From a virus (taxonomy: Duplodnaviria > Heunggongvirae > Uroviricota > Caudoviricetes), in IMG/VR virus record IMGVR_UViG_3300029610_000240: a stretch of DNA of 64,000 bases. One strand, 5' to 3'. Made by a program: the position numbers and the translations under genes. Under the pieces are notes generated by a model, which saw nothing but the letters and a program-made list of their open reading frames with translations, did no database searches and had not been told where the DNA came from. This document shows, piece by piece, positions 19,773 to 57,660 of this stretch. Within the stretch, counting starts at the first letter, position 1. Each line of letters begins with the position of its first letter.

Positions 19773-20044
19773 CCCCGACCTACAGTAATAACTGTTGAGG
19801 TCGGAGCTTGTAAAAGCTCATATTGACTAGCCTAAGTTCTTCGAGAACTACGTTGTTTATGTTATCACACCTGCGAATGATACCATAGTTTGCAGCCTTG
19901 TGTAGGCTCTGTAAAAGTTCTGTGAGGTAGGAACGGTCAACCTAGTATGTTCGATCACGACAAGCATTTACAACATTGGCGAAGGGTAACAAACTTTCAA
20001 AAGAAAGGGACAGCACTTGAGAGTAGCTGTCAAAGGTAAAAACT
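19773..20044 (+). ncRNA. IscB omega-RNA region
   Basis: About 270 nt of non-coding, visibly GC-richer and hairpin-rich sequence immediately 5' of iscB, which is the known position of IscB omega-RNAs. Confidence 0.65.
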
Positions 20045-23446: not shown

Positions 23447-23600
23447 CATCCTCTCCCATCTATAGAGGTGGGAGCTTCCCTAACCTCGGCAGGTTTGGTT
23501 CTCGTTCGATAGCACCAATGTGCTAAGCTTAAGCGAGCTAACCCCGTGTGTCCCACGGTTGTATTATGTGAAATTGTGGTTATGCAGTTACTATCCGCAT
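23447..23600 (-). ncRNA. TnpB omega-RNA region
   Basis: Sequence overlapping and extending past the 3' end of tnpB, GC-richer than its surroundings, ending at the element-end hairpin. Confidence 0.55.
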
Positions 23601-32710: not shown

Positions 32711-32730
32711 CGTAACTATAAAGAGATTCA

Positions 32731-32802
32731 TGATGATGACTTAATTGATGATTTAAGACAAAGTTTTAAAAATATGTAACAGATATATGTAAAAACAAAT
32801 GG
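32731..32802 (+). CRISPR. guide module A: one spacer-like segment plus one repeat
   Basis: Repeat GTTTTAAAAATATGTAACAGATATATGTAAAAACAAATGG (32763..32802), preceded by TGATGATGACTTAATTGATGATTTAAGACAAA. Confidence 0.6.
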
Positions 32803-32804
32803 CA

Positions 32805-32872
32805 GTTACATAATGCGTAAGAATAAGAATGTATCGAATAAGTCTATATAAGTAGAATCTACCAGGTGGTAG
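32805..32872 (+). ncRNA. tracrRNA-like scaffold A
   Basis: Anti-repeat GTTACATAATGCGTAAGAAT pairs with ATATGTAAC of the repeat. Nexus AAGAATGTATCGAAT. Hairpins TCTA/TAGA and CTACC-AGG-TGGTAG (32859..32872). Confidence 0.65.
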
Positions 32873-32904
32873 AAAATATTAAAACTAACAGGAGATAATA
32901 TTTC

Positions 32905-33267
32905 ATGGACACAGAAGATTTAATTGAAAAAAAGGTAAATATCATGATTTTACTATGTATCATGATGATAATGTTGGCTATGCTTCCCCGTATGGTTAAC
33001 CAGGTAATAAAAATTTGTAACTATAAACAAACAGCTTCTCTAAATGTGGATGATAAATATTACCAAAATTCTCGCTGGGGAAACAGCTATAAAATTGTTA
33101 TTAATTGTCATGATGAAGAAAAAGAAATTGCAGTTTCAGAAAAAGAATTTCACGCAATTAAAATCGGAGATAAAGTATTGTGTAATGTATATCGTTCAGC
33201 AAATCAAGTTGTAACTGTAGAATTAAATGAACATTGGAAAGACGCAGGTGACAAGTATGATAACTAA
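32905..33267 (+). CDS. small membrane-anchored protein
   Basis: RBS AGGAGA and one TM helix. Paralogue of 32225..32710. Confidence 0.55.
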   Translation: MDTEDLIEKKVNIMILLCIMMIMLAMLPRMVNQVIKICNYKQTASLNVDDKYYQNSRWGNSYKIVINCHDEEKEIAVSEKEFHAIKIGDKVLCNVYRSANQVVTVELNEHWKDAGDKYDN

Positions 33268-36277: not shown

Positions 36278-36356
36278 TCAAATTATTTTGCACGGTGCGT
36301 AAAAATAAGAAATTATCGAATAGGCTCGTTAAAACGAGAGCTGCCGTGTGGCAGTA
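36278..36356 (+). ncRNA. tracrRNA-like scaffold B
   Basis: TCAAATTATT linker. Anti-repeat TTGCACGGTGCGTAAAAAT pairs with ACCGTGTAA. Nexus AAGAAATTATCGAAT. Hairpins CTCGT-TAAA-ACGAG and CTGCC-GTGT-GGCAG. Confidence 0.75.
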
Positions 36357-36499
36357 AATCTAAGCTACATCAATTTCAAGATTATAATTTGGGAGGAGAA
36401 AATGTTTGGGAAAATTAATGTTTTTTATTTATTGTTGGCTATATATTTGTATTATTTGTTATATTCTTGCAGCCAAGAACAAGAAAGAAGGTGTAGTGT

Positions 36500-43880: not shown

Positions 43881-44159
43881 ACTTAAAAATAGAGTATTAT
43901 TTATTAGCATTTTCTGATATAATATAAGCAGTGTTAGAGAGATATATGTAACACCATCGTTTATTAGAAAAGAATATACAGGGAAATTGCATCATTTTAT
44001 ACAATTTCTAAAGCGAGAGGTATTCATATATCTCTCGTTTTTTTTATGTGAAGAGTATTCGATTGAATGCTCTTTTTTCTTTGTAATAATCTAAACGATT
44101 TGTTACAGATCATCTCCTGGCATGAGTAACAAAAAGCTAATATGAAAGGAAGATGCTCT

Positions 44160-45038
44160 ATGATGAAAGAAAAAGGACAATTCAAGAAAAAGTTTGTACA
44201 GAAGATTGCTACAATTATGATGGCAGCAGCTATGGTTGTGAGTGGTGGATTTGGAGTTGCACCAGCAGCGGATCATTCAGTATCCGTATATGCAACAGAT
44301 AATGCATATCGTGGTTATCATGTAACTTCTACGAAGACGGAAAAGAAACCTGCGACCTCATCTACAAAGAAAAGCAAGTTGTCAAAAAATCATGCAAACA
44401 AAACAACAAAAACAGTAACAACTACGACAACTAGCACAGGTTACAAGCATGTTGTTGCAAAAGACACGAAAACTGTAACAAAGACTGTCGTAACTACAAC
44501 AAAGGTATATTACAAAAAGACCTTAACAACAACTGTAAAAAAACAGGTAACTGTAACGACAACAACGATCAATTATCTGAGAAGCGGTAATCCAGATTAT
44601 ATGAAATTAATGGGAACAGTAAATACTCAGATTCCTACAAAGGTGGGGAATGCAATGAAAGCAGATGGATTAAAAGTAGTCCTGAATCCTAATTTATCTT
44701 ATGATGGAGTATATTCTGCTTCCAGAAATTCCATTGAAATGAAAAATAATGTAGATTATGGTTTTATGCATGAAATTGGACACTATGTGGATCGTAAGAC
44801 AGGATATGTTTCAGGCAGTACAGAATTTAAAAATATCTTTAATTCTGAAAAATCCAAATACAAAGGATTTTATTCTGACTGGAATTTAGATAGTGGAAAT
44901 TATGCAAGAACAAGCACTTCTGATTATTTTGCAGAATGTTTTAGAGATTACTACTTTAGTGCAAACTCCAGAAGCAAGTTAAAAGCAAATTGTCCTAAAT
45001 CTTATAGTTTTATTCAGAAAACAATCAATAAGTTCTAA
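44160..45038 (+). CDS. secreted zinc metalloprotease, anthrax-lethal-factor/PPEP (M34)-like domain
   Basis: Signal peptide, T/K-rich linker, MHEIGHYVD and downstream SDYFAECFRDYYFS. Confidence 0.6.
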   Translation: MMKEKGQFKKKFVQKIATIMMAAAMVVSGGFGVAPAADHSVSVYATDNAYRGYHVTSTKTEKKPATSSTKKSKLSKNHANKTTKTVTTTTTSTGYKHVVAKDTKTVTKTVVTTTKVYYKKTLTTTVKKQVTVTTTTINYLRSGNPDYMKLMGTVNTQIPTKVGNAMKADGLKVVLNPNLSYDGVYSASRNSIEMKNNVDYGFMHEIGHYVDRKTGYVSGSTEFKNIFNSEKSKYKGFYSDWNLDSGNYARTSTSDYFAECFRDYYFSANSRSKLKANCPKSYSFIQKTINKF

Positions 45039-45131
45039 ACAATCAATATTAATTTATCTCAGGAGTCAGTAAGCAGATGCTTACTGGCTCTTTTAGTATA
45101 CAGAAAAAAATGAGGAGAAGAACACGAAACA

Positions 45132-45959
45132 ATGGAAAACAAAAATAACATAAGCAAGTTAACAAAAATCTTATTTGTTGCACTAGCAATGGGAATGATC
45201 TTGATTTCCCCATATCAATTATGCAATGTGGCAGCAGCTGATAAATACTATGGATACCAGAAGAAAACAAAGAGTGTAAAAACAAAGATAACAGCATCTA
45301 AAAAGAAAGTACGTATAAAAAAGAAATATAGAGGAACAAGAACCACAAAAAATGTTGAAAGCAAATGGTCTGATTCTTATAAATATACATATGGAGATGC
45401 AAAAAAGATACATATAAAGACAGTTATAACCACTCAAAAAACATATCACGGATATTTTATTACGACAAAGCGAAATATTAAAACGACAACTACAGAAAAT
45501 AAAATCAATTTTGTTCGCAATCAGAAGAAAGTTAGTTTTAATGGCCGAATTCCAAGTAATGTACAGAAACAATTGAATAGTGAAAAAATACAGATCGTCA
45601 TAAATCCAAAATTGAAACATAATGGAATCTTTTCTCTGAAAGATAAGAAAATATCCATAAAATATAACTCCGACTATGTTTTATTACATGAAATAGGACA
45701 TTTTGTAAATTACAAAAATGGTGATGCTGCACATAGTTCAGAATTTTATAATATCTACTTAAAAGAAAGAAGTAAATATCGTGGATTCTATAACGATTAT
45801 TATGAAAAGTTAGACCTTGGAAAATATGAAAGAACTACTCCTGCGGAATATTTTGCCGGAGCATATCGGGATTATTATTTTAGCAAAGATTCTCGGAATC
45901 GATTAAAAAAATATTGTCCAAATACTTATAATTTTATTACTAAATACCATTTTATTTAA
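45132..45959 (+). CDS. secreted zinc metalloprotease, paralogue of 44160..45038
   Basis: Signal peptide, LHEIGHFVN and AEYFAGAYRDYYFS. Confidence 0.6.
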   Translation: MENKNNISKLTKILFVALAMGMILISPYQLCNVAAADKYYGYQKKTKSVKTKITASKKKVRIKKKYRGTRTTKNVESKWSDSYKYTYGDAKKIHIKTVITTQKTYHGYFITTKRNIKTTTTENKINFVRNQKKVSFNGRIPSNVQKQLNSEKIQIVINPKLKHNGIFSLKDKKISIKYNSDYVLLHEIGHFVNYKNGDAAHSSEFYNIYLKERSKYRGFYNDYYEKLDLGKYERTTPAEYFAGAYRDYYFSKDSRNRLKKYCPNTYNFITKYHFI

Positions 45960-46126
45960 AATATTGTAATTTTGTAATAAATATATATTAATGTGGGGGC
46001 ATTACATAAATAATGAAATAAAAAGGCGTATTATATTGAAAAAAGTATCAAAAAGTGTTAGCATATTACATATAGACAAGAGAATTCAGAAAAACAAAAT
46101 GTGTATTTTATAAGGAGGATACTTAC

Positions 46127-49100
46127 GTGCAGAATGGATTTTTAGGAATAACTGTTAGTAGTGAACAGGTTGGTTGGGCAGTTACAAATCCCAAATATGA
46201 GTTAGAACGTGCATCTCGAAAAGATTTATGGGGTGTAAGGCTTTTTGATAAAGCAGAAACAGCGGAAGATCGAAGAATGTTCCGTACAAACAGACGATTA
46301 AATCAGAGAAAAAAGAACAGAATACATTATCTTAGAGATATTTTCCATGAGGAAGTAAATCAAAAAGATCCTAACTTTTTTCAGCAATTAGATGAAAGCA
46401 ATTTCTGTGAAGATGATCGTACTGTAGAGTTTAATTTTGATACTAATCTTTATAAGAATCAGTTTCCAACAGTGTATCATTTAAGAAAATATCTAATGGA
46501 AACAAAAGATAAACCAGATATTCGTCTGGTATACTTAGCTTTTTCAAAATTTATGAAAAATCGAGGACATTTCTTATACAAAGGAAATCTTGGAGAGGTT
46601 ATGGACTTTGAAAATTCCATGAAAGGCTTTTGTGAAAGTTTAGAGAAATTTAATATTGACTTCCCTACATTATCAGATGAACAGGTAAAAGAAGTCCGAG
46701 ATATCTTATGTGATCATAAAATTGCTAAAACTGTGAAAAAGAAAAACATCATTACTATTACAAAAGTAAAAAGTAAGACAGCAAAAGCATGGATTGGACT
46801 GTTTTGTGGTTGCAGCGTTCCTGTTAAAGTATTATTTCAGGATATCGATGAAGAAATTGTAACGGATCCAGAAAAAATCTCATTTGAAGATGCTTCTTAT
46901 GATGATTGTATTGCAAATATTGAAAAGGGTGTCGGTATTTATTATGAAGCTATTGTTTCTGCAAAGATGCTTTTTGACTGGTCTATCCTGAATGAAATTT
47001 TAGGTGACCATCAGTTATTAAGTGATGCAATGATCGCAGAATACAATAAGCATCATGATGATTTAAAGCGTTTACAGAAGATCATTAAAGGAACTGGCAG
47101 TAGAGAATTATATCAGGATATCTTTATTAATGATGTTTCTGGAAATTATGTATGCTACGTTGGTCATGCAAAAACAATGAGTAGTGCAGATCAGAAACAG
47201 TTTTATACATTTTTAAAAAATCGATTAAAAAATGTGAATGGTATTTCATCAGAAGATGCAGAATGGATTGATACAGAGATTAAAAACGGTACTTTACTAC
47301 CAAAACAGACAAAACGTGATAACAGTGTTATTCCGCATCAATTACAGTTAAGGGAATTTGAATTAATTCTTGATAACATGCAGGAAATGTATCCATTCTT
47401 AAAAGAAAACAGAGAAAAATTATTAAAAATCTTCAATTTCGTTATTCCTTATTATGTAGGTCCGCTAAAGGGCGTTGTAAGAAAAGGAGAGAGTACAAAC
47501 TGGATGGTGCCTAAAAAAGATGGTGTGATTCATCCATGGAATTTCGATGAAATGGTAGACAAAGAAGCGTCTGCGGAATGTTTTATTTCCCGAATGACAG
47601 GAAATTGTAGTTATTTATTTAATGAAAAAGTTCTTCCAAAGAATTCTCTTCTTTATGAGACATTTGAGGTATTAAATGAGCTAAATCCATTAAAGATCAA
47701 TGGAGAACCTATCAGCGTGGAATTAAAACAGAGAATTTATGAACAGCTTTTCTTGACAGGGAAAAAAGTTACAAAAAAATCTCTGACAAAATATCTTATC
47801 AAGAATGGCTATGACAAAGATATTGAATTATCAGGTATTGATAATGAATTTCACAGCAATCTAAAATCTCATATTGATTTTGAGGATTACGATAATCTAT
47901 CTGATGAAGAAGTTGAACAGATTATTCTTAGAATTACAGTATTTGAAGATAAGCAGCTGTTAAAAGATTATTTAAATCGCGAGTTTGTAAAGCTCTCTGA
48001 GGATGAGAGAAAACAGATTTGCTCATTATCTTATAAAGGATGGGGAAACTTATCAGAAATGCTATTAAACGGTATTACTGTAACAGATTCCAATGGTGTA
48101 GAAGTTTCTGTAATGGATATGCTGTGGAATACAAACTTAAATCTGATGCAGATCTTAAGTAAGAAATATGGATATAAAGCAGAAATCGAACATTACAATA
48201 AAGAACATGAAAAAACCATTTATAATCGTGAAGATTTGATGGATTATTTAAATATTCCACCGGCTCAGCGTAGGAAGGTAAATCAGCTGATTACGATAGT
48301 AAAATCTCTCAAAAAGACATATGGAGTTCCAAATAAGATTTTCTTCAAAATAAGCAGAGAACATCAGGATGATCCAAAGAGAACTTCATCCAGAAAAGAA
48401 CAGCTAAAATATTTATACAAATCCTTAAAATCAGAAGATGAAAAACATCTTATGAAAGAGCTTGATGAATTGAACGATCATGAATTATCCAATGATAAAG
48501 TTTATCTTTATTTTCTACAGAAAGGACGCTGCATTTATTCTGGCAAGAAATTAAATCTTTCAAGATTAAGAAAATCTAATTATCAGAATGATATTGACTA
48601 CATTTATCCATTATCTGCAGTAAATGATCGTTCTATGAATAATAAGGTATTAACGGGAATCCAGGAGAATCGAGCAGACAAGTATACCTATTTTCCAGTT
48701 GATTCAGAAATTCAGAAAAAAATGAAGGGATTTTGGATGGAACTGGTTCTGCAGGGATTTATGACAAAGGAGAAATACTTCCGATTATCCAGAGAAAATG
48801 ATTTTTCAAAGAGCGAACTTGTTAGCTTTATTGAACGTGAAATTTCAGATAATCAGCAAAGTGGAAGAATGATTGCTTCTGTATTACAGTATTATTTCCC
48901 TGAATCAAAGATTGTATTTGTAAAAGAAAAGCTGATTTCTTCCTTTAAGAGGGATTTCCATTTAATTAGTAGTTATGGTCACAATCATTTACAAGCTGCA
49001 AAAGATGCTTATATTACGATTGTAGTTGGAAATGTATATCATACAAAATTTACAATGGACCCAGCAATCTATTTTAAGAATCATAAGAGAAAAGATTATG

Positions 49101-50065
49101 ATCTGAACCGATTATTCTTAGAAAATATCAGCAGAGATGGACAGATTGCATGGGAAAGTGGTCCATATGGGTCAATTCAGACGGTTCGAAAAGAATATGC
49201 TCAAAACCATATTGCTGTTACAAAAAGAGTCGTGGAAGTAAAAGGCGGCTTATTTAAGCAGATGCCATTAAAAAAAGGACATGGCGAATATCCATTAAAA
49301 ACCAATGATCCTAGATTTGGCAATATCGCACAGTATGGAGGGTATACGAATGTCACAGGTTCCTATTTTGTATTAGTAGAATCAATGGAGAAAGGGAAAA
49401 AACGTATTTCTTTAGAATATGTTCCAGTATATCTTCATGAGCGTTTAGAGGATGATCCTGGACATAAACTGTTAAAAGAATATCTGGTTGATCACAGAAA
49501 ACTTAATCATCCAAAGATTTTACTTGCAAAAGTAAGAAAAAACTCATTACTTAAGATTGACGGTTTTTATTATCGTTTAAATGGTCGAAGTGGAAATGCT
49601 CTTATCCTTACAAATGCAGTGGAATTGATCATGGATGACTGGCAGACAAAAACAGCAAACAAGATTTCTGGATACATGAAACGCAGAGCTATTGATAAGA
49701 AAGCAAGGGTTTATCAAAATGAATTCCATATTCAGGAATTAGAACAGCTTTATGATTTTTATTTAGATAAATTAGAGAATGGTGTTTATAAAAATCGTAA
49801 GAATAATCAGGCTGAATTAATTCACAACGAAAAAGAACAGTTTATGGAACTCAAGACAGAAGATCAGTGTGTATTATTGACTGAGATTAAAAAGCTTTTT
49901 GTATGTTCTCCAATGCAGGCAGACCTTACATTGATTGGTGGCAGCAAACACACAGGAATGATTGCTATGTCAAGCAATGTTACAAAAGCAGATTTTGCAG
50001 TCATTGCGGAAGATCCTTTAGGACTTAGAAACAAAGTAATTTATTCTCATAAAGGTGAGAAGTAA
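46127..50065 (+). CDS. cas9: Cas9 homologue (type II-A-like size) with substituted RuvC and HNH catalytic residues
   Basis: GTG start 7 nt after AAGGAGGA. Conserved: bridge helix RRMFRTNRRLNQRKKNRIHYLRDIF, FPTVYHLRKYL, NRGHFLYKG, IPHQLQL, IPYYVGPL, PWNFDEMVDKEASAECFISRMT, YKGWGNLS. Catalytic columns: LGITVSSEQVGWAV (D10 is T), IFFKISREHQ (E762 is K), DIDYIYPLS (H840 is Y), QAAKDAYITIVVG (H983 is A, D986 kept). Confidence 0.9.
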   Translation: MQNGFLGITVSSEQVGWAVTNPKYELERASRKDLWGVRLFDKAETAEDRRMFRTNRRLNQRKKNRIHYLRDIFHEEVNQKDPNFFQQLDESNFCEDDRTVEFNFDTNLYKNQFPTVYHLRKYLMETKDKPDIRLVYLAFSKFMKNRGHFLYKGNLGEVMDFENSMKGFCESLEKFNIDFPTLSDEQVKEVRDILCDHKIAKTVKKKNIITITKVKSKTAKAWIGLFCGCSVPVKVLFQDIDEEIVTDPEKISFEDASYDDCIANIEKGVGIYYEAIVSAKMLFDWSILNEILGDHQLLSDAMIAEYNKHHDDLKRLQKIIKGTGSRELYQDIFINDVSGNYVCYVGHAKTMSSADQKQFYTFLKNRLKNVNGISSEDAEWIDTEIKNGTLLPKQTKRDNSVIPHQLQLREFELILDNMQEMYPFLKENREKLLKIFNFVIPYYVGPLKGVVRKGESTNWMVPKKDGVIHPWNFDEMVDKEASAECFISRMTGNCSYLFNEKVLPKNSLLYETFEVLNELNPLKINGEPISVELKQRIYEQLFLTGKKVTKKSLTKYLIKNGYDKDIELSGIDNEFHSNLKSHIDFEDYDNLSDEEVEQIILRITVFEDKQLLKDYLNREFVKLSEDERKQICSLSYKGWGNLSEMLLNGITVTDSNGVEVSVMDMLWNTNLNLMQILSKKYGYKAEIEHYNKEHEKTIYNREDLMDYLNIPPAQRRKVNQLITIVKSLKKTYGVPNKIFFKISREHQDDPKRTSSRKEQLKYLYKSLKSEDEKHLMKELDELNDHELSNDKVYLYFLQKGRCIYSGKKLNLSRLRKSNYQNDIDYIYPLSAVNDRSMNNKVLTGIQENRADKYTYFPVDSEIQKKMKGFWMELVLQGFMTKEKYFRLSRENDFSKSELVSFIEREISDNQQSGRMIASVLQYYFPESKIVFVKEKLISSFKRDFHLISSYGHNHLQAAKDAYITIVVGNVYHTKFTMDPAIYFKNHKRKDYDLNRLFLENISRDGQIAWESGPYGSIQTVRKEYAQNHIAVTKRVVEVKGGLFKQMPLKKGHGEYPLKTNDPRFGNIAQYGGYTNVTGSYFVLVESMEKGKKRISLEYVPVYLHERLEDDPGHKLLKEYLVDHRKLNHPKILLAKVRKNSLLKIDGFYYRLNGRSGNALILTNAVELIMDDWQTKTANKISGYMKRRAIDKKARVYQNEFHIQELEQLYDFYLDKLENGVYKNRKNNQAELIHNEKEQFMELKTEDQCVLLTEIKKLFVCSPMQADLTLIGGSKHTGMIAMSSNVTKADFAVIAEDPLGLRNKVIYSHKGEK

Positions 50066-50106
50066 GTTTTCATATTTGTTCGGAAAATTCATAATCATAT
50101 CGAACG

Positions 50107-50259
50107 GCTTTGGAACTGCGTAGAACATGATATGTCTTATGGCTAAAAGAATTACAGGTGCATATTTTGAACTGTGTAAAACATGGCATATGGGAGAATT
50201 GGCAACGACTGGAACAGAACACAGTTTTGAAACTGTATAAAACATGACATGTCTTATGG
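50107..50259 (+). CRISPR. guide module C mini-array (3 repeats), starting 42 nt after the cas9 stop
   Basis: Repeats at 50107..50142 (6 mismatches), 50164..50193 (30 nt, decayed) and 50224..50259 (GTTTTGAAACTGTATAAAACATGACATGTCTTATGG). Spacers: 21 nt CTAAAAGAATTACAGGTGCAT and 30 nt GAGAATTGGCAACGACTGGAACAGAACACA. Confidence 0.75.
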
Positions 50260-50336
50260 TTCAAATTATTTATACAGTACGTGAAAATAAGAAATTATCG
50301 AATAAACTCGTTTAGACGAGAACTGCTAGAGGCAGT
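50260..50336 (+). ncRNA. tracrRNA-like scaffold C
   Basis: Anti-repeat TTTATACAGTACGTGAAAAT gives a 10-bp perfect pairing with ACTGTATAAA. Nexus AAGAAATTATCGAAT. Hairpins CTCGT-TTAG-ACGAG and CTGC-TAGAG-GCAG (50323..50335). Confidence 0.8.
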
Positions 50337-50352
50337 AATTGCAGAAAATGTC

Positions 50353-50385
50353 ATGAACCCCAAGCGACTTCGTCGGCCGGGGGTT
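50353..50385 (+). terminator. GC-rich hairpin after module C
   Basis: AACCCC..CGAC-TTC-GTCG..GGGGTT nested stem followed by a short T run. Confidence 0.45.
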
Positions 50386-50448
50386 TACGCACCAATTTGA
50401 TAATATTTCTAATCATATATTACCTTATATGATTAATGGAGAAAATAG

Positions 50449-50595
50449 ATGTTTCAAGTAAAAAATAAAGAAACTGGGCAAGAATATACCGTATATGCTG
50501 TCGGGGATGAATATCTGACAAAATTTCTGATTTATGAAGATGGACATTGGAAATGGCAGACTATAGATGATTTTGTTCCAGTGATTGTAGATTAA
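50449..50595 (+). CDS. 48-aa hypothetical protein
   Basis: ATG behind GGAGAAAATAG. Product MFQVKNKETGQEYTVYAVGDEYLTKFLIYEDGHWKWQTIDDFVPVIVD. Below the ORF-track cut-off. Confidence 0.4.
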   Translation: MFQVKNKETGQEYTVYAVGDEYLTKFLIYEDGHWKWQTIDDFVPVIVD

Positions 50596-50612
50596 GAAAG
50601 CGAGAAATTCAC

Positions 50613-50957
50613 ATGAAGATTACAAGAACGATTAAATTTAAAGAATATATCCTCGGATATTTAGAAAAATTAGAGGTTCATGAAGTTCGACGCATTGAAA
50701 AAGCCGGACGATTAAGCCGTGACATTATCAAAGAGGAATCTGAAAAATGCGGACACAAATTAATGATTCTTGATACGATTGAAAAAGAAAGACGTTATGA
50801 ATGTTCATTAGAAGATTTCTTATCCGTTGCAAGAGAGATTCCACTAAAAAATCAGGAGACTGTTAATACAGAAGAAAAAAATGTTCAGGAAGATAATTCA
50901 GAGGATTCTAAGTCTAAGTTAGGCGATTCTGACTGTGCCCCTTGGATTGAAGATTAA
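50613..50957 (+). CDS. hypothetical protein
   Basis: 114-aa ORF lying between guide modules C and D. Confidence 0.5.
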   Translation: MKITRTIKFKEYILGYLEKLEVHEVRRIEKAGRLSRDIIKEESEKCGHKLMILDTIEKERRYECSLEDFLSVAREIPLKNQETVNTEEKNVQEDNSEDSKSKLGDSDCAPWIED

Positions 50958-50961
50958 TGTT

Positions 50962-51117
50962 ATTTTGAGAAATGATTGCAAATGTGATCGTAGCGTACCT
51001 TACTTCACAGCTTAGTTTTGGAACTATGTAAAATCAAATGATTGCAAATGGGCAGAGAGAAAATTTGAAAAATTGTCTGTGTTTTGGAACTATGTAAAAT
51101 CAAATGATTGCAAATGG
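50962..51117 (+). CRISPR. guide module D mini-array (3 repeats)
   Basis: Repeats at 50962..50985 (internally deleted), 51015..51051 and 51081..51117 (GTTTTGGAACTATGTAAAATCAAATGATTGCAAATGG). Spacers: GATCGTAGCGTACCTTACTTCACAGCTTA and GCAGAGAGAAAATTTGAAAAATTGTCTGT. Confidence 0.8.
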
Positions 51118-51193
51118 TCAAAGTAATTGCATGGCGTGTAAAAATAAGAATTTATCGAAATAATTTGCTCCGGCGAAATCTGCAAGATGCAGA
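51118..51193 (+). ncRNA. tracrRNA-like scaffold D
   Basis: TCAAAGTAA linker. Anti-repeat TTGCATGGCGTGTAAAAAT pairs with CTATGTAA through two G:U. Nexus AAGAATTTATCGAAAT. Hairpins TTTGC-TCCG-GCGAA and TCTGC-AAGA-TGCAGA. Confidence 0.75.
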
Positions 51194-51197
51194 AATC

Positions 51198-51265
51198 AAG
51201 CTGATCGATGCTTTACATATTTATCTATTTCAATATTTCTTCAACCATATACATTGATCAGCTTT
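51198..51265 (+). terminator. long-loop inverted repeat with AGCTGATC core (possible terminator)
   Basis: AAGCTGATCGATG pairs with CATTGATCAGCTT (13 bp, one G:U) around a 42-nt loop. A related element lies at 54054..54131. Confidence 0.4.
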
Positions 51266-51290
51266 AATAAAAAGAATTAAAATTACGAAA

Positions 51291-51445
51291 ATAAAATTGA
51301 ATGATTCCAATGGATAGTCGAAAAAGAATTGGATAGTCGACGGGTTTTAGAATAGTGTAAAATTGAATGATTCTAAGGGTTAGATACTCCACTAGATAGC
51401 AAAGTACTTGTTTTAGAATAGTGTAAAATTAAATGATTCTAAGGG
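51291..51445 (+). CRISPR. guide module E mini-array (3 repeats)
   Basis: Repeats at 51292..51313 (3' half only), 51344..51379 (GTTTTAGAATAGTGTAAAATTGAATGATTCTAAGGG) and 51410..51445. Spacers: ATAGTCGAAAAAGAATTGGATAGTCGACGG and TTAGATACTCCACTAGATAGCAAAGTACTT. Confidence 0.8.
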
Positions 51446-51528
51446 GTCAAATAGATTCTATACAATGCGTGAAAATAAGAAACTTATCGAACAAACCTGT
51501 GTAGGAAACAGGAACTGCCGAGGGCAGT
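51446..51528 (+). ncRNA. tracrRNA-like scaffold E
   Basis: GTCAAATAGAT linker, anti-repeat TCTATACAATGCGTGAAAAT, nexus AAGAAACTTATCGAAC. Hairpins CCTGT-GTAGGAA-ACAGG and CTGCC-GAG-GGCAG (51515..51527). Confidence 0.75.
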
Positions 51529-51823
51529 AAAAATAAAAAGCATATTTTTATTATGTTTTATTTTATGATGAAGAGGTGGATGATGGTTCTATCTCTGTTT
51601 TTGAGAAAATGGATGCATTGCAAAATGCAACAATCTTAGAAGTACAAATACATATTGATGACTTAAAAGATAAATTGGAAGAAGTAAAATTTACTCTTAA
51701 AATATCAGGTTTGTATTTGAAGAAGATAATTTTATGGATTCTTATTATAAATCTTATACGTTACCGATTGTATATCACAAAAACTATTTATTAAGTATTA
51801 ACAATGATAAGGAATAACAATAA

Positions 51824-53755
51824 ATGGAAATAGATTACAGAAAAGAATTAAATAAGAGTCAATATGAAGCTGTTACAACGACAGAAGGACCAGTCCTAAT
51901 CCTTGCCGGTGCCGGAACTGGCAAAACTCGTTGTATGGTATATCGTGTGGCATATCTGATTGAAAAAGGCGTGTCACCCAATAATATCTTATTATTGACC
52001 TTTACAAATAAAGCAGCAAATGAAATGAAGCAAAGGGCAGCAGATATGCTTGATGAACGATGTAGTCAAATTACTGCATGTACATATCATTCATTCTGTG
52101 CAAAGATGCTTCGCAAATATTCACAACTGATTGGAATTCAATCAGATTATACAATTATTGATCCGGGAGATTGTGCAGATATCATATCGATCATCGAAAC
52201 AGAACACGGTATGGATAAAGTAAAAGATTTTCCAAGATCATCTCAACTGGTATCAGCACATAGCAAAGCCTTAAATACGAATCAGTCATTAGAGGATACT
52301 TTGTTTGATATGCTCGGTAAATGGAAGTATATGGAAATCGAAAGATTCATTCCAGATATAAAGAAAATCTTAGCGGATTATCAATCATACAAAAAACAAA
52401 ACAACATGATGGATTATGATGATTTGCTAATCAATTTTATATCTGTATTGAAAAGAAACCCTTCTATAAAGAATAAATTAGCTGATATTTATCAGTATAT
52501 TATGATCGACGAATATCAGGATTCTAATTATTTACAGGAAAAGATTATTTTTATGTTACGTGAAAAGAATCGTAACTTAGCAGTGGTAGGTGATGATTAC
52601 CAATGCATCTATGGATTTAGAGGAAGTATGGTAGAAAATATCATTAATTTTCCACAAAAGATGTCCGGATGTAAAGTTGTTTACTTAACACAGAATTATC
52701 GCAGCAATCAAGAGATCATGGATTTATCCAATATTGTTATGAAAAAACATTCACTGGAAGGTTTTTTTAAAAAGCTTGTCGCAACTCATGTGGCCAATAT
52801 TCAGCCATTGCTAGTTCGATCAGAGGACGAGGGCGAAGAAGCTTCTTATATTTTAAATAAGATTATGGCATTACATGATGAAGAAGAGATTCCGTATCAT
52901 GAAATTTGTGTTCTTGAAAGAAGTTCTTATCATTCTGTAAGACTAGAAGCACTTTTAAATAAAATGAAAATCCCATATGACAAATATGGTGGAATGAAGT
53001 TTTTTGATTATGATCATATCAAAAACTTCTTATGCTTTTTGCGATGTCAGATAAATCCACATGATGAAATTGCGTGGTTTCGACTATTAAAGTTATTTGA
53101 TGGTATTGGAAATGTTTATGCCAGAAATATCGCAGCAACATGTAAAACTCTTGGATTAGAGGGACTTGTTCAACACAAATACATAAAAAGAAAATTTCAG
53201 CCGGATCTTGAAAATTTAAAGAGTTTTATTGAAAAGCTTAATGATCAAGATTTTCAGATCGAATTGCAAAGCATTAAATCATTTTATTCACGTTTAATGG
53301 ACATTACATTAATGCTGATGAAAACATCGGAGAAGAAACGTAGGGAGCTTGCTAGAGCAAATAAACAAGCGGTCCGCGATTTTGATACACTGATTGAAAT
53401 GGCAGATGGATATGATTCTCCAGTGACATTTCTGGAAGAAATAATGCTTGAAGCCAGTCCTCAGAAAGAGGAAGAGGAAGATCGAATGGTTATATCTACA
53501 ATTCATTCCGCAAAAGGCTTAGAGTTTCACTCTGTTTTTGTTATGAACTGCGTAGATACAATGTTTCCATCTACAGATAAAGATCAGATTGGAACAGTAG
53601 AAGATAACGAAGAGTTGAGATGCTTCTATGTGGCAATAACACGGGCAAAAGAACGATTATTTTTAATGGCACCGAAATATATAGCCAAATTTGGATGTGT
53701 TGAAGAGGGAATTATCTCCCATTTTATTAGTGATGTTTTTCAAGTAAAGGAGTAA
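51824..53755 (+). CDS. UvrD/PcrA-type SF1 DNA helicase
   Basis: Walker A AGAGTGKT, motif II IMIDEYQDSN, QNYRSNQEI, late STIHSAKGLEF and FYVAITRAKERL. Confidence 0.85.
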   Translation: MEIDYRKELNKSQYEAVTTTEGPVLILAGAGTGKTRCMVYRVAYLIEKGVSPNNILLLTFTNKAANEMKQRAADMLDERCSQITACTYHSFCAKMLRKYSQLIGIQSDYTIIDPGDCADIISIIETEHGMDKVKDFPRSSQLVSAHSKALNTNQSLEDTLFDMLGKWKYMEIERFIPDIKKILADYQSYKKQNNMMDYDDLLINFISVLKRNPSIKNKLADIYQYIMIDEYQDSNYLQEKIIFMLREKNRNLAVVGDDYQCIYGFRGSMVENIINFPQKMSGCKVVYLTQNYRSNQEIMDLSNIVMKKHSLEGFFKKLVATHVANIQPLLVRSEDEGEEASYILNKIMALHDEEEIPYHEICVLERSSYHSVRLEALLNKMKIPYDKYGGMKFFDYDHIKNFLCFLRCQINPHDEIAWFRLLKLFDGIGNVYARNIAATCKTLGLEGLVQHKYIKRKFQPDLENLKSFIEKLNDQDFQIELQSIKSFYSRLMDITLMLMKTSEKKRRELARANKQAVRDFDTLIEMADGYDSPVTFLEEIMLEASPQKEEEEDRMVISTIHSAKGLEFHSVFVMNCVDTMFPSTDKDQIGTVEDNEELRCFYVAITRAKERLFLMAPKYIAKFGCVEEGIISHFISDVFQVKE

Positions 53756-53791
53756 TTTATAGTGAAATGCTTAAATTATGTTGTCAATGTG

Positions 53792-53965
53792 GATTTGAAT
53801 CCATGTAAAAATGTAAAGCAAATGATTCCAAATGGCAATCTTCTCGAATTGTCGTGTAGGCAAAGTTTTGAAACCATGTAAAAAAATGATTCCAAATGGG
53901 TATGCATTGGTGTTTGAAGCGTTTGTGTGTTTTGGAACCATGTAAAAGCAAATGATTCCAAATGG
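53792..53965 (+). CRISPR. guide module F mini-array (3 repeats)
   Basis: Repeats at 53792..53835 (internal duplication), 53865..53899 (2-nt deletion) and 53929..53965 (GTTTTGGAACCATGTAAAAGCAAATGATTCCAAATGG). Spacers: CAATCTTCTCGAATTGTCGTGTAGGCAAA and GTATGCATTGGTGTTTGAAGCGTTTGTGT. Confidence 0.8.
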
Positions 53966-54043
53966 TTAAAAGCAGATTACATGGTGTGTCAAAATAAGAA
54001 CTTATCGAATAGATCTATATAAATGGAATCTGCCAGGTGGCAG
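53966..54043 (+). ncRNA. tracrRNA-like scaffold F
   Basis: Anti-repeat TTACATGGTGTGTCAAAAT gives a 9-bp perfect pairing with ACCATGTAA. Nexus AAGAACTTATCGAAT. Hairpin 2 CTGCC-AGGT-GGCAG (54030..54043). Hairpin 1 is weak and resembles that of scaffold A. Confidence 0.75.
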
Positions 54044-54053
54044 AAAAAAACTG

Positions 54054-54131
54054 AAAAAGCTGATCAATAATAACTGTTGTTACCATAATATTAATTTATG
54101 TTTTTGTATTTTGTCTATTGATCAGCTTTTT
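54054..54131 (+). terminator. 16-bp perfect long-loop inverted repeat with AGCTGATC core
   Basis: AAAAAGCTGATCAATA pairs perfectly with TATTGATCAGCTTTTT around a 46-nt loop. Confidence 0.5.
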
Positions 54132-54133
54132 GC

Positions 54134-55411
54134 ATGAAAATGAAAGTTATAAATATGGCAATGAAGAAAGTCGGTGATGATAAATTGAGAAGAAAAGTAG
54201 TCAGTTTTTTACTTGTTACACTTATGATGGCAACGATCACTCCTGTACATGCAGATGAGGTGTCAGAACCAACAACTGCTGCGACAGAAGTTACAACAAC
54301 AGAAACGAAGCCGACTACGACAGAAAAAAAAGAAACAACTCATCATAAGGAAAAAACAGTAAAAAAAGATAAGAAAACAAAAAAGAAAAATACTAAAAAA
54401 GATGGGAAAAAGAAAAGTAAACAAAAAGAAAAATCTAAAAAAAAGGAAAACAAAAAATCAACAATTCCGATGCCTAAACGGGCTGTAAAGAAAAAAGGTT
54501 GTGATACTGTACAAAAGAAGATTGTAAAAATGCAATCAAAGATTAAAAAGTTGCAGAAAGAACAAAAAAATATCCGAAAAGAGATCAAAAAAGAAAATAA
54601 TAAAAAAGAAGCACTGCAGCGATTTTATCAGCAATATCCTACAGAGCGTGAAGCAACTATGAAACTGCGAGGACAAAAGATTACACCTCTTACTAAGATT
54701 TCAGAGGAAGACGATGCATTAAGAAATAGATTATTCAGTTTAGCTAATACATTTCATGACGATCAACTACGTAAAATTGCCTCTGAGTACGTCTTTGGCG
54801 TAAGAGATCTTAATTTTGAAGACCTGTTAAACGAGGATGATACCATTGACCTTAATACATATTTAAAAGGCAAATATATTGCTCCAACGCAGAATATGCA
54901 GATAGGAATTAAAAATAAGGATCAAGAAATTCAAAAATTAAAGAAACAGATCAAAGAGGAAAAGAAAACCAGATTTTTTGATCCGAAAAACGTAAATTCT
55001 ATTAGCAATATTACAGTTGATGATGCTAAAAAGATGTTGTCTGGAACGCAATTATATCCAGAAGCAGAAGCTTTTGTTAAAGCAGAAAGAATTCATCATG
55101 TAAATGCAGTCTTTTTAATGGGAATTGCTGCACATGAAAGTGCCTGGGGAACAAGCCGGCGTGCCAGAGAAGATAATAATTTAACTGGATATGGAGTTTA
55201 CTCAGATAGTGCAAAGGGCATCAATAAGACAAGCAAAGAAGAAGGATTATTAGCCACCGCTGAGACATTGCACGAACGATACTTAACCCCTGGAGGCAGC
55301 TATTACGAAGGAACTTCCGTTGCTGATGTAAATAAACATTATTGTGTCGGAAATGAATGGGCCGGAGCGGTAGTTGGTTATGCTTATCAATTAATGAATA
55401 AACTAAATTAG
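54134..55411 (+). CDS. secreted Lys-rich protein with C-terminal GH73-type glucosaminidase domain
   Basis: Signal peptide and K/E-rich low-complexity linker. AVFLMGIAAHESAWGTSRRAREDNNLTGYGV is the FlgJ/GH73 catalytic region. Confidence 0.75.
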   Translation: MKMKVINMAMKKVGDDKLRRKVVSFLLVTLMMATITPVHADEVSEPTTAATEVTTTETKPTTTEKKETTHHKEKTVKKDKKTKKKNTKKDGKKKSKQKEKSKKKENKKSTIPMPKRAVKKKGCDTVQKKIVKMQSKIKKLQKEQKNIRKEIKKENNKKEALQRFYQQYPTEREATMKLRGQKITPLTKISEEDDALRNRLFSLANTFHDDQLRKIASEYVFGVRDLNFEDLLNEDDTIDLNTYLKGKYIAPTQNMQIGIKNKDQEIQKLKKQIKEEKKTRFFDPKNVNSISNITVDDAKKMLSGTQLYPEAEAFVKAERIHHVNAVFLMGIAAHESAWGTSRRAREDNNLTGYGVYSDSAKGINKTSKEEGLLATAETLHERYLTPGGSYYEGTSVADVNKHYCVGNEWAGAVVGYAYQLMNKLN

Positions 55412-55543
55412 ATATCATCAAAGAGGTTTTGGTTAACTAAAGGTTGATTATCGGTATATCATTGTTCGGTGTCTGTAGACAGCATTTTTTCAAATCTATA
55501 GTTGTTATAAAATAAGAGACACTTTCATGTATAGTGGAGTTTA

Positions 55544-55570
55544 GTTTCAGAAGTTTATAAAAACAGATAA
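55544..55570 (+). CRISPR. guide module G: single divergent repeat
   Basis: GTTTCAGAAGTTTATAAAAACAGATAA, preceded by the candidate guide GAGACACTTTCATGTATAGTGGAGTTTA. Confidence 0.5.
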
Positions 55571-55580
55571 CTATTAATGA

Positions 55581-55658
55581 TTATCTGTTTCATGGATTGT
55601 GTAAAAATAAGCAAATTAGCGAATATGCTCGTTGAAACGAGAGCTGTTAGATAACAGC
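55581..55658 (+). ncRNA. tracrRNA-like scaffold G
   Basis: TTATCTGTTT pairs perfectly with AAACAGATAA across a 10-nt loop. GATTGTGTAAAAAT, nexus variant AAGCAAATTAGCGAAT. Hairpins CTCGT-TGAA-ACGAG and GCTGTTA-GA-TAACAGC. Confidence 0.6.
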
Positions 55659-55710
55659 TAAAAATGTAACTATATAAATTAATTTGTAAATTATAGGGAG
55701 GACTATTTTA

Positions 55711-55866
55711 GTGAAACACGGTAAAGTTCCAACAAGAAATCAAAAAGAACTTATGTTAAAAAATAATCTTAATCCGAAAGAATGGCTGGTTGTAAAGAAA
55801 ATGGCGGATGGATTTGAGATTGTTAATAGAGAAAATGAAGCAGATCGTAAATTTCTGTATTGTTAA
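55711..55866 (+). CDS. 51-aa small protein
   Basis: GTG start behind GGGAGGA. Product MKHGKVPTRNQKELMLKNNLNPKEWLVVKK.. resembles small conserved proteins of Firmicutes mobile elements, recalled from memory. Below the ORF-track cut-off. Confidence 0.45.
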   Translation: MKHGKVPTRNQKELMLKNNLNPKEWLVVKKMADGFEIVNRENEADRKFLYC

Positions 55867-55875
55867 GGTGAAATA

Positions 55876-56091
55876 ATGATGGATATTTACACAAGATTAT
55901 TGATGATGGATATTATGATATCGGCAGTAGCTATTATGGTAAATATCTTAGAAAATTGTCCGATTAACGGTAAAATACACAATATTTCAAGAATTTTAAT
56001 CATATCTAGTATTGCTGCAGACATTATCTTACTTTTAGGAATTGTCAATACGTTCATCTCATACAGTATCCTGTATTCTTATTTTAAATAA
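55876..56091 (+). CDS. small membrane protein
   Basis: 71 aa with two hydrophobic helices. Its stop overlaps the first, partial repeat of module H. Confidence 0.45.
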   Translation: MMDIYTRLLMMDIMISAVAIMVNILENCPINGKIHNISRILIISSIAADIILLLGIVNTFISYSILYSYFK

Positions 56092-56094
56092 GAT

Positions 56095-56249
56095 ACAGAA
56101 GAATCATTGTCGATGTTAAACATATTATGTGAAACATTATTGTCAGGCTTTAGAAGTCTATAAAACAGAATCATTGTCAATGAGATCAAATTCTTTATGA
56201 CAACGCAATACAGCTTTAGAAGTCTATAAAACAGAATCATTGTCAATGG
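56095..56249 (+). CRISPR. guide module H mini-array (3 repeats)
   Basis: Repeats at 56095..56115 (3' half only), 56147..56183 and 56213..56249 (GCTTTAGAAGTCTATAAAACAGAATCATTGTCAATGG). Spacers: TTAAACATATTATGTGAAACATTATTGTCAG and GATCAAATTCTTTATGACAACGCAATACA. Confidence 0.8.
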
Positions 56250-56325
56250 TCAAATAAGCAGACTGCGTAAAAATAAGAATTTTATCGATATTGCTCGTGT
56301 AGTCGAGAACTGCCAAGTGGCAGCA
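56250..56325 (+). ncRNA. tracrRNA-like scaffold H
   Basis: TCAAATAAG linker, anti-repeat CAGACTGCGTAAAAAT, nexus AAGAATTTTATCGAT. Hairpins CTCG-TGTAGT-CGAG and CTGCC-AAGT-GGCAG (56310..56323). The next gene's RBS follows 18 nt later. Confidence 0.75.
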
Positions 56326-56352
56326 ACATTTATAATAAAAAGGAGGAATTAT

Positions 56353-57006
56353 ATGCGAAAACAAGTTTTTGCAACGATTGGTTGTGCTATCTTTTTACTG
56401 ATCGTAGTAGGTTTCCTGATGATGGCATATTCTTCTTATACAAAACATCAAGAGGAAATTGCTGAACAAAAATTAATAAAGCAGGAAAGAAAAGAATCAC
56501 GAAAAACACTTCAATCATCAGAAGAAAGGGAATGGAATCTGGACTGCCTGTGGGAGCATGTTATCGAAATTGATGGTACAGAAATTGAAGTACCAATTAA
56601 ATACAATGATCTGATCAAGACACTTGGAAACAAAGTGAAAGAAGCTAAAGATAAAAAAATCATGCTACAAAATGGACAGGTTTTATGGCTGAATTGTACA
56701 AAAGATGAAAAAGACTCTATGAATAATGGAAAAGATAAAGCAATGGTTTATGGTATATCTACACAACAGGACGCTAAAGATTCTTGTGTTACAATTCAGA
56801 AAATCAAAACTGGAATGTCTTATGATAAATTAAAGGAATATTATGAGACTCCAGTTACGAAAGATGATTCCCAAAGTATTTCTGTACTGCAATATGCTGA
56901 TCCGAAATCTGATTTAGATATCACACAGCAGAATGTGACTGTTTATCTGGATAACAATACAGTGGTTGGATTAGGTATATATTATGACGGAAGTAAGGAG
57001 GAATAG
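56353..57006 (+). CDS. membrane-anchored hypothetical protein
   Basis: ATG at 56353 behind AAAGGAGGA. One N-terminal TM helix. Confidence 0.55.
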   Translation: MRKQVFATIGCAIFLLIVVGFLMMAYSSYTKHQEEIAEQKLIKQERKESRKTLQSSEEREWNLDCLWEHVIEIDGTEIEVPIKYNDLIKTLGNKVKEAKDKKIMLQNGQVLWLNCTKDEKDSMNNGKDKAMVYGISTQQDAKDSCVTIQKIKTGMSYDKLKEYYETPVTKDDSQSISVLQYADPKSDLDITQQNVTVYLDNNTVVGLGIYYDGSKEE

Positions 57007-57007
57007 G

Positions 57008-57238
57008 ATGGAAAATAAAAATAAACCAAACCAAGAATTATTAACTATTAAAGAAACGGCAAAATTATTAAAAGTAAATCCACATAGAGTATATGACTTA
57101 GTGAGAATGGGAATTTTGCCAGCACTAAAATTAGGAAGCCTGAAAATACGAAGACAGGCATTAAATGAATTCCTTGAAGAATATGAAGGGATGGATCTGA
57201 CAGATTTAAATGAGATCAAAAAATTAGAAGTTAAATAA
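57008..57238 (+). CDS. excisionase-type HTH DNA-binding protein
   Basis: ATG behind AAGGAGGA. LLTIKETAKLLKVNPHRVYDLVRMGILPALKLGSLKIRRQALNEF is the excisionase/MerR-like winged helix. Confidence 0.7.
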   Translation: MENKNKPNQELLTIKETAKLLKVNPHRVYDLVRMGILPALKLGSLKIRRQALNEFLEEYEGMDLTDLNEIKKLEVK

Positions 57239-57660
57239 AAAGGAGCTGTTATGTCGGGATAATCTGATATAATAGCTCTTTTTTTGTAGCAAATTCTAAA
57301 TACTAATTAACAAATTAACTATATTATAAAGGATAATTTGATGATGGTAAATAATGAAGTCCCACGTCAGGCCCACGGAGAGTGCGGCACGAATAAGCAC
57401 GTATATGCATAATATACATAAAAATAGCATGCGTGATACGTTCTGGTTGTGAAAAATATACGAAAAAAGCACAAAATAACACGATATAACATAGGTAGTC
57501 ATTCGCAGTTGGGTTGGGTAACAACCCAATGGTAGGAGCTACAGTAGCTGTAGCTGTATCTATTGAGGAAGCTGCTAAAGCAGGTAAATTCTAGGAAACC
57601 ACGTATTTAAGCGGTTTTTTGAGGGTGTTAGAAGTGGTAAAAAGTAGTGAAATGTAGACA

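Follow-up and report, generated by a model that had tools for sequence, protein, structure and literature searches.

Introduction

To our knowledge, descriptions of natural single-guide RNAs (sgRNAs) are recent, and in each of them the RNA regulates or inhibits an active Cas9. In the type II-B system of Francisella novicida, scaRNA, a CRISPR RNA (crRNA)-like molecule encoded outside the array, carries a fixed guide with which Cas9 represses without cleavage. Here we describe module G, a unit of guide, CRISPR repeat and trans-activating CRISPR RNA (tracrRNA) that occupies positions 55516-55658 of a 64,000-nucleotide (nt) stretch of DNA recorded as viral (IMG/VR record IMGVR_UViG_3300029610_000240). 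The whole stretch, to which coordinates refer unless a related locus is named, is called the window below. It belongs to a Tn916-like conjugative element of the gut bacterium Anaerostipes hadrus, which also encodes a Cas9 homologue without the catalytic residues (dead Cas9). We find module G to be a genuine gene for a Cas9 guide RNA that folds on itself and bears a single fixed guide. Whereas scaRNA exists as an RNA of its own, joins the tracrRNA by pairing in trans, depends on partial complementarity and serves an active Cas9, the parts of module G are fused in cis.

Guide, repeat and tracrRNA are also united in tracr-L, the long form of the tracrRNA in the type II-A system of Streptococcus pyogenes, a natural RNA that folds as a single guide and gives binding without cutting (Workman et al.; bioRxiv 10.1101/2020.05.21.102756). 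The 11-13-nt guide of tracr-L avoids cleavage by the active Cas9, and its target is the cas9 promoter (bioRxiv 10.1101/2020.05.21.102756). Module G, unlike tracr-L, has up to ~28 nt 5' of its repeat, accompanies a Cas9 without catalytic residues and has no match in the window, the cas9 promoter included; where tracr-L has a large intervening loop, module G has a closed 10-base-pair (bp) helix with a 10-nt loop. The sgRNAs termed vsgRNA or rAcrIIA1 occur in prophages beside anti-CRISPR genes, mimic the host guide and act against the active host Cas9 (bioRxiv 10.64898/2026.06.01.729453; 10.64898/2026.06.03.729762). Like module G, they are hairpin-closed natural sgRNAs with a fixed guide on a mobile element. 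Module G differs from them in that its carrier, a conjugative element, itself supplies a dead Cas9, and in being one of eight related modules, most of which are spacer-bearing arrays.

FrCas9 of Faecalibaculum rodentium is an active nuclease, accompanied by cas1, cas2, csn2 and a single long array; its 71-nt tracrRNA is a separate one, encoded on the opposite strand (PMC8931148, PMC12926199). Type II-A systems of the FrCas9 type share with the one described here the 36-nt repeats, the 30-nt spacers and a handle composed of a repeat:anti-repeat duplex, a nexus and two hairpins. In contrast to them, the tracrRNA is here fused in cis, there are eight dispersed modules, a terminator is absent, the Cas9 lacks its catalytic residues and no adaptation genes were seen among the 39 larger open reading frames (ORFs) screened in the window.

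Eight RAGATH-30 modules share the fold of a Cas9 guide RNA

The tracrRNA tail of module G matches the Rfam family RAGATH-30 (RF03055) with 64.7 bits over the full model (1-59) on the plus strand, at an E-value of 5.4e-10 for the whole window. Membership was defined by the gathering score of the covariance model, 59.5 bits. The window contains eight such matches, designated modules A to H, all on the plus strand. Module G has the lowest score of the eight and module E the next at 64.9 bits, so that its designation as the most divergent unit in the preliminary description holds narrowly.

A CRISPR-type repeat of 36 nt is found immediately 5' of each RAGATH-30 tail. This last repeat is, in most modules, preceded by additional repeats and by one or two spacers of 30 nt, and the outermost repeats are degenerate. 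In each module, the last repeat is followed by a stretch complementary to the 5' part of the repeat, and every module has its own repeat variant with a co-varying anti-repeat. The Rfam model spans the tail only, with two annotated hairpins and a 5' stretch of 27 nt marked 'unpaired'. The conserved sequence of this 'unpaired' part, GUAAAAAUAAGAAuUUAUCGAAu, corresponds to the end of the anti-repeat and the nexus, and the two annotated hairpins are those of the tracrRNA. The orphan motif RAGATH-30 appears to be a tracrRNA tail that is joined in cis to a mini CRISPR array at its last repeat, and the last spacer, repeat and tracrRNA of each module can fold as a natural single guide. No paper giving RAGATH-30 a function was found in a literature search of incomplete coverage, which amounts to absence of evidence only.

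The common fold was assessed on an alignment (A2) of 17 distinct modules from the window and related elements, scored for the Cas9-type arrangement of lower stem, upper stem, nexus and two hairpins (27 pairs) against 500 shuffles and against controls with the pairing partners slid by 1-3 columns. Pairing is realised in 95.3% of cells, against 86.7 +/- 0.7 in shuffles, and changes on both sides are seen in 15 of the 27 pairs, against 7.3 +/- 1.6. None of the 500 shuffles reaches the observed values of pairing or covariation, and sliding the partners lowers pairing to 32-54%. Covarying pairs make up five of nine in the upper stem and all five in hairpin 1. Module G fits all five helices of this covariation-supported fold, with four of five positions paired in the lower stem, eight of nine in the upper stem, three of three in the nexus and five of five in either hairpin. 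Invariant positions across the eight modules of the window are GU.A.AAUAAG and the A.C.A of the nexus; other positions are free if pairing is kept. The placement of module G in a series of single-guide-like units that reveal the scaffold changes tolerated by one Cas9-family protein, as first proposed, is borne out.

Structure of module G

Every sequence element attributed to module G in the preliminary description was located within 55516-55658 (Table 1). The repeat begins with GTTTCAG at 55544, not with GTTTTNG; the perfect 10-bp cis stem with its 10-nt loop is present at 55561-55590, and the altered nexus and hairpin 2 are in place. Two of the proposed properties require revision. The upper stem, thought to be shifted, is retained in its usual register (AGUUUAU with AUGGAUU, 7 bp, three of them G-U), which is common to the other 16 modules, and the 10-bp helix formed by the arms AAACAGATAA and TTATCTGTTT around the loop CTATTAATGA lengthens it by stacking on it across a 2x1 internal loop. 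The space that this helix fills is a loop of roughly 24-27 nt in other modules. Nor is the unit compact, as it measures 117 nt from the start of the repeat to the end of hairpin 2, against 113-121 nt in the other seven modules.

The nexus pair at alignment columns 71:78 is C:G in module G only and A:U in the 16 other modules, both sides having changed, which in the alignment reads as a compensatory replacement of A:U by C:G; the nexus also has one extra loop base. Hairpin 2 is fully re-paired, with two U:A pairs standing where C:G is usual. The 119-nt unit folds at -26.8 kcal/mol (z = -3.0), a value equalled in two of 200 shuffles, and the energy of the handle fold is -11.2 kcal/mol. Given a RAGATH-30 match well above chance and this z value, module G is not a chance pattern. 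Its repeat is nearest to that of module H, GCTTTAGAAGTCTATAAAACAG. The crRNA-like part and the tracrRNA are contiguous on the same strand, in a fold closed by the 10-bp helix, and probably form one transcript.

Table 1. Features of module G, the RAGATH-30 matches and the Cas9 and DUF6906 genes in the window
Feature	Position	Strand	Remarks
Leader of module G, possible degenerate repeat remnant	55494-55529	+	-10-like TATAAAAT at 55506-55513; TGTTATAAA at 55503-55511
Guide segment	55516-55543	+	GAGACACTTTCATGTATAGTGGAGTTTA; directly 5' of the repeat, offset as for spacers in modules B-F and H
Sole intact CRISPR repeat	55544-55579	+	GTTTCAGAAGTTTATAAAAACAGATAACTATTAATG; 36 nt, begins GTTTCAG
Repeat, lower-stem strand	55544-55548
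Repeat, upper-stem strand	55552-55558
Extra helix, left arm (within repeat)	55561-55570	+	AAACAGATAA
Loop	55571-55580	+	CTATTAATGA; 10 nt, caps the extended repeat:anti-repeat helix
Extra helix, right arm	55581-55590	+	TTATCTGTTT
Linker and anti-repeat	55581-55608	+
Anti-repeat, upper-stem strand	55592-55598		ATGGATT
Anti-repeat, lower-stem strand	55604-55608		AAAAT
RAGATH-30 match (tracrRNA tail)	55601-55660	+	Rfam; anti-repeat end, nexus, hairpin 1, hairpin 2
Nexus	55609-55624	+	AAGCAAATTAGCGAAT; pairs G:C, C:G, A:U; 0 mismatches
Hairpin 1	55628-55641	+	CTCGT / ACGAG, 5 bp; shape unchanged, fully paired
Hairpin 2	55643-55658	+	GCTGTTA-GA-TAACAGC, 7 bp
All eight RAGATH-30 matches	32817-32875, 36299-36357, 50281-50338, 51138-51195, 51469-51530, 53988-54046, 55601-55660, 56267-56326	+
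Cas9 homologue	46127-50065	+	1312 amino acids (aa); presumed protein partner, 5.5 kb upstream of module G, same strand
DUF6906 gene	55711-55866	+	51 aa; Pfam PF21847, E 9e-20; downstream of module G

A Cas9 homologue without its catalytic residues

The presumed partner of module G displays the REC, PAM-interacting, bridge-helix and HNH domains of Pfam, and its best relative of solved structure is FrCas9 (PDB 9jwk, E 7e-216). Its NCBI label is Cas9 of Anaerostipes hadrus (WP_044924278.1). The catalytic residues were read from an alignment with canonical relatives and are numbered as in SpCas9. In this clade, RuvC-I reads FLGITVSS in place of YLGLDLGT (D10 to T), RuvC-II reads KIFFKISRE in place of RIFVEMARE (E762 to K), RuvC-III reads NHLQAAKDAY in place of NDLHHAKDAY (HH to QA, with H983 to A), and HNH reads NDIDYIYPLS in place of YDIDHIYPQS (H840 to Y). 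The equivalents of D10T, E762K, H983A and H840Y are common to the clade, with the exception of one member (P0020) that keeps the HNH histidine. In variants from metagenomes (P0003-P0018), the whole HNH domain is deleted in frame, with 96-99% identity elsewhere. The open reading frames of the homologue are intact, the protein is very abundant, in a cluster of 2780 sequences, and the next relatives of the clade, at ~42% identity, are ordinary Cas9s. Since residues of both RuvC and HNH are lost, established knowledge of Cas9 catalysis predicts that the protein should bind DNA under RNA guidance without cutting it.

A peptide-pattern search of GTDB genomes returned no relatives of this Cas9, with a pattern that missed the protein present in NCBI genomes of A. 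hadrus. A literature search of incomplete coverage found no paper on a natural dead Cas9 or on the Cas9 of A. hadrus. Just 3' of the dead cas9 lies a gene for a UvrD/REP-type helicase (51824-53755), syntenic in elements that carry module G as in the window (W-type elements) and in the related loci L005 and L020; L009 and L013 lack it. Other CRISPR effectors without a nuclease recruit helicases, and by analogy this one is possibly an accessory of the dead Cas9.

Spacers turn over around a fixed guide

In 18 copies of module G the guide is the same. Modules B-F and H of these elements, by contrast, have spacers that differ in sequence and number (L001, L002, L007, L017, L019 and the window). Different spacers in elements whose flanking DNA is ~99% identical imply an active turnover, although no cas1 or cas2 was seen in the window; the turnover perhaps proceeds via the host adaptation machinery or by recombination. 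Shared and unique spacers occur at both ends of module F across elements, and we make no claim on the polarity of uptake.

Protospacers were sought in IMG/VR for six spacers other than the guide of module G; five gave no match beyond their own array, and one gave matches in 32 contigs. This spacer, ACCACCGCAGTGCTAAGCGTTAAGATCTGG (L019 3203-3232, module E), agrees with the 32 phage contigs (L024-L055) in 29 of its 30 nt; the 3' flank reads GAAAATGG. The L028 protospacer lies on the coding strand inside an early-region ORF of 134 aa. As the flank comes from one protospacer family, GAAAATGG is a candidate and not an established protospacer-adjacent motif (PAM). By this match, spacers derived from invaders are present in the system as a whole. 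In the L009 array, one spacer (10525-10554) has a 21/23 match at 11953-11975 of the same element, in an HNH-domain gene; the match may be due to chance, with an E-value of 0.005 for one of ~40 queries.

Module G has one intact repeat, without a second full repeat upstream, and as a consequence of this collapse its guide no longer turns over. The motif GTCAAA(T) that follows the terminal repeat elsewhere is clearly missing in module G and ambiguous in the other single-repeat module (A). One might speculate that the motif is an integration signal that module G has lost.

A fixed guide or a decaying module

That module G is a natural single guide in a frozen state, which the dead Cas9 still takes up and which directs binding, not cleavage, at one fixed site, we consider about as likely as not. 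An array-bearing module at this site would have collapsed to one intact repeat, and turnover of the guide would have stopped. The repeat:anti-repeat duplex would have been kept and lengthened by the 10-bp helix into a closed hairpin, like that of an engineered sgRNA. Transcription would begin in the AT-rich leader or read through from the gene upstream. The dead Cas9 would hold the RNA by its lower stem, bulge, nexus and hairpins and be sent by it to a fixed DNA site, to bind or block without cleavage. In support of a frozen guide stand a scaffold that is intact and agrees with the covariation, a nexus pair with a compensatory change, the lengthened helix and a guide that stays fixed; that the RNA is expressed and loaded, that it has a target and what follows there are inferred. 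A narrower form of this proposal, that module G is the hard-wired guide of a natural dead Cas9, a built-in repressor at a fixed locus of the host or of a rival element, beside mini-arrays that serve adaptive anti-phage functions, seems to us rather unlikely as it stands.

A number of observations, concerning the RNA itself, its target and the fate of the module in related elements, weigh against the frozen-guide proposal. The lower stem consists of one G-U and three U-A pairs and ends in its one mismatch, C 55548 against A 55604. In the minimum-energy fold of the unit, the 5' GUUUCA can pair with UGAAAC of hairpin 1. A consensus promoter scan detects no plus-strand promoter directly upstream of the guide, the nearest lying at 55433-55462, and no terminator-like site is present in 55350-56400, with no U-tract after hairpin 2.

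The guide has no match in the window as a 20-mer with up to four mismatches, and no seed match of 10 nt or more; among seeds of 8-9 nt, the sole 9-nt match (55192-55200, inside the glucosaminidase gene) is within chance, and none falls at the cas9 promoter. No target of the guide was found in any fetched locus, in the INPHARED phages and PLSDB plasmids (queried with all spacers concatenated) or in the GTDB genomes. From IMG/VR, the exact 20-mer retrieves only module G itself, and the guide of the L020 orthologue retrieves nothing from the same collection. A pattern excluding module G gave one 19-mer match in the JGI metagenomes, on a 3.4-kb contig; it shows no further complementarity, agrees with chance expectation and was rejected. 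The segment 55494-55529 may be a degenerate second repeat, with a weak alignment to the repeats of modules G and H that 20 and 24 of 500 shuffles, respectively, equal in score. In that case only the last 14 nt of the guide segment, 55530-55543 (TATAGTGGAGTTTA), would be left as spacer, and searches with 19-20-mers could not have found its source.

The intergenic site between the glucosaminidase and DUF6906 genes, whose order around the site is kept in all relatives, displays four states among the elements compared. The first, module G as in the window, is represented in metagenomes and NCBI genomes by 18 copies (the window and 17 fetched loci). Among them, the unit of 143 nt (55516-55658) varies by two singleton changes only, 55623 A>G and 55643 G>T. 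The copies are ~99% identical locally, so the near-identity of the module carries little weight as a sign of selection. The second state is a diverged orthologue in L020 and L021, where the region is 83% identical overall and the tail 95%. Its leader, guide and repeat are the least conserved stretch, with 57-77% identity against 92-97% in the flanks, and the conservation of the tail is no higher than that of the flanking genes. In L020, the leader differs by an indel of 30 nt, and the 10-bp helix has lost its left arm to a 5-nt deletion and is consequently not conserved; the L020 handle folds at -5.2 kcal/mol, against -11.2 in the window. In the third state, seen in L005 and L006 (Cas9 89% identical), guide, repeat and anti-repeat are deleted, and the nexus and hairpins remain. 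Copies of AAAATAAG in the leader (55508-55515) and at the end of the anti-repeat (55604-55611) bound the deletion in L005 (L005 8601-8752), which suggests a loss of the 5' half by microhomology. In the fourth state, L009 and L013 (Cas9 73-74% identical) bear true arrays of six and three repeats, respectively, fused to the tracrRNA. The occurrence of arrays, a diverged module G and a deletion at the same site indicates that module G is a derived, collapsed form of an array module, and that its 5' half is unstable in evolution. The preliminary description had taken a lack of the unit in islands that are otherwise conserved as telling against it, and this applies in part: the 5' half is gone from L005 and L006, and true arrays stand in place of the module in L009 and L013.

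These observations lend themselves to another explanation, in which module G is a decaying relic: a collapsed array without spacer uptake or target, drifting, and intact in the window only owing to the recent spread of the element. The low conservation of its 5' half, the helix deletion and leader indel in L020, the microhomology-bounded deletion in L005 and L006, the lack of a target in any collection searched, the uninformative identity of the 18 copies and a 'guide' that is perhaps partly repeat-derived are all in its favour. A drifting sequence, however, would not be expected to keep five helices intact, with a double compensatory change in the nexus and a hairpin 2 re-paired over 7 bp, and a perfect 10-bp helix exactly between repeat and anti-repeat is unlikely to arise by drift alone. 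In L020 a pairable handle (GGUUU:AGAUU and GUAA:UUAC) can still be recognised by eye, although it is not formed in the minimum-energy fold, and the change in hairpin 2 preserves a wobble pair. The unit also contains no common polymorphism in the 18 copies, against three in the 104 nt upstream, a difference that is not statistically significant. On balance, decay appears a possible explanation, and a less probable one than a frozen guide. The preliminary description, which offered a relic or a deliberately compact single guide, identified the right pair of alternatives, relic or fixed guide, apart from the compactness.

Roles that need no target

Module G could also act independently of any target, as a decoy or sponge that titrates the element's own Cas9, as a donor of tracrRNA in trans for the repeats of module H, or by sequestering an active Cas9 of the recipient. 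Compact sgRNAs of phages that sequester and so inhibit Cas9 have been described (bioRxiv 10.64898/2026.06.01.729453; 10.64898/2026.06.03.729762), and the hairpin-closed handle of module G is the most stable of the eight. The anti-repeat AUGGAUU pairs, as judged by eye, with AGUCUAU of the module H repeat at least as well as with its own repeat. The tail is conserved and the guide is not, and in L005 the tail alone survives, with a compensatory change in hairpin 1. Conservation of the tail, on the other hand, does not exceed that of the flanking genes, no anti-CRISPR genes are recognised nearby, and an additional donor seems unnecessary on an element with its own Cas9 homologue and seven further modules with tails of their own. 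We regard roles of this kind as improbable, and as less likely than decay.

Transcription and the downstream genes

Under the frozen-guide proposal, transcription of module G may start in the leader, where TTATAAAAT is conserved in the L020 orthologue; the extended -10 sequence TGTTATAAA was read by eye, and its TG is not conserved in L020. The second single-repeat module of the window, module A (32730-32875), has a promoter-like TTCAAA-17-TATAAA ~40 nt upstream of its repeat. A U-tract terminator is absent from all eight tails, and no more than about 25-50 nt separate each tail from a downstream ribosome-binding site and ORF (e.g. 32876-32905, 51531-51576, 56327-56353). The ribosome-binding site of the DUF6906 gene lies 40 nt after hairpin 2 of module G. 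The modules look embedded in operon transcripts, and module G may be co-transcribed with DUF6906. A reading of module G as an intrinsic terminator or attenuator was rejected for want of a U-tract. That module G is chiefly a cis element of the DUF6906 mRNA (a 5' leader, processing site or stabiliser), with its guide features an inherited by-product, would fit the eight terminator-less tails ahead of ORFs and the persistence of the L005 tail upstream of DUF6906 after loss of the guide, but is very unlikely, the least likely of the explanations considered, as both sequence conservation and helix covariation correspond to a Cas9 guide scaffold near a Cas9 homologue, the downstream genes vary between modules, and the spacers turn over, at least one of them matching phages.

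Other genes of the element

The genes around the system include DUF6906, a cell-wall glucosaminidase, an LPXTG adhesin and, in relatives, a Tn916-type Xis and integrase. Two related contigs are listed as viral in IMG/VR despite their Tn916-like gene content. A megablast of 44000-57500 against the phage and plasmid collections gave no match. None of the 39 larger ORFs screened across the window has a Pfam match to Cas1, Cas2 or Csn2, small ORFs being only partly covered, and no anti-CRISPR families were recognised among the ORFs screened near module G.

Also on this element are an IscB gene (RRXRR and HNH), with a HEARO RNA (112 bits) ahead of it, and a minus-strand TnpB gene (19765-21319 and 23580-24698 of the window). 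Together with the dead Cas9, this places three kinds of RNA-guided protein on one island. A restriction-modification pair is located at 13979-16359, where a gene for an Eco57I-like N6 methyltransferase adjoins one for a restriction endonuclease of the BsuBI/PstI family. In a public assembly collection, 21,919 indexed blocks contain the exact DUF6906 protein of 51 aa, from which it follows that the element, or at least its DUF6906 end, is extremely common in gut metagenomes.

Biological significance

Module G is a natural sgRNA-like gene paired with a Cas9 without cutting residues, on a conjugative element found in very many human-gut metagenome assemblies. RAGATH-30 gains a concrete identity as a tracrRNA tail, and the eight modules constitute a natural series of scaffolds for one protein, showing which positions are invariant and which are free. 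The main interest of module G lies in this series and in its partner, a natural dead Cas9 on a very common conjugative element of the gut. If module G is functional, it would mark a step from an adaptive array to a fixed regulatory guide; if it is decaying, it would show how such a module dies, first collapsing to one repeat and then losing its 5' half. Should its guide prove hard-wired to a locus that the dead Cas9 represses, it would be a natural counterpart of laboratory CRISPR interference, complete with a natural sgRNA.

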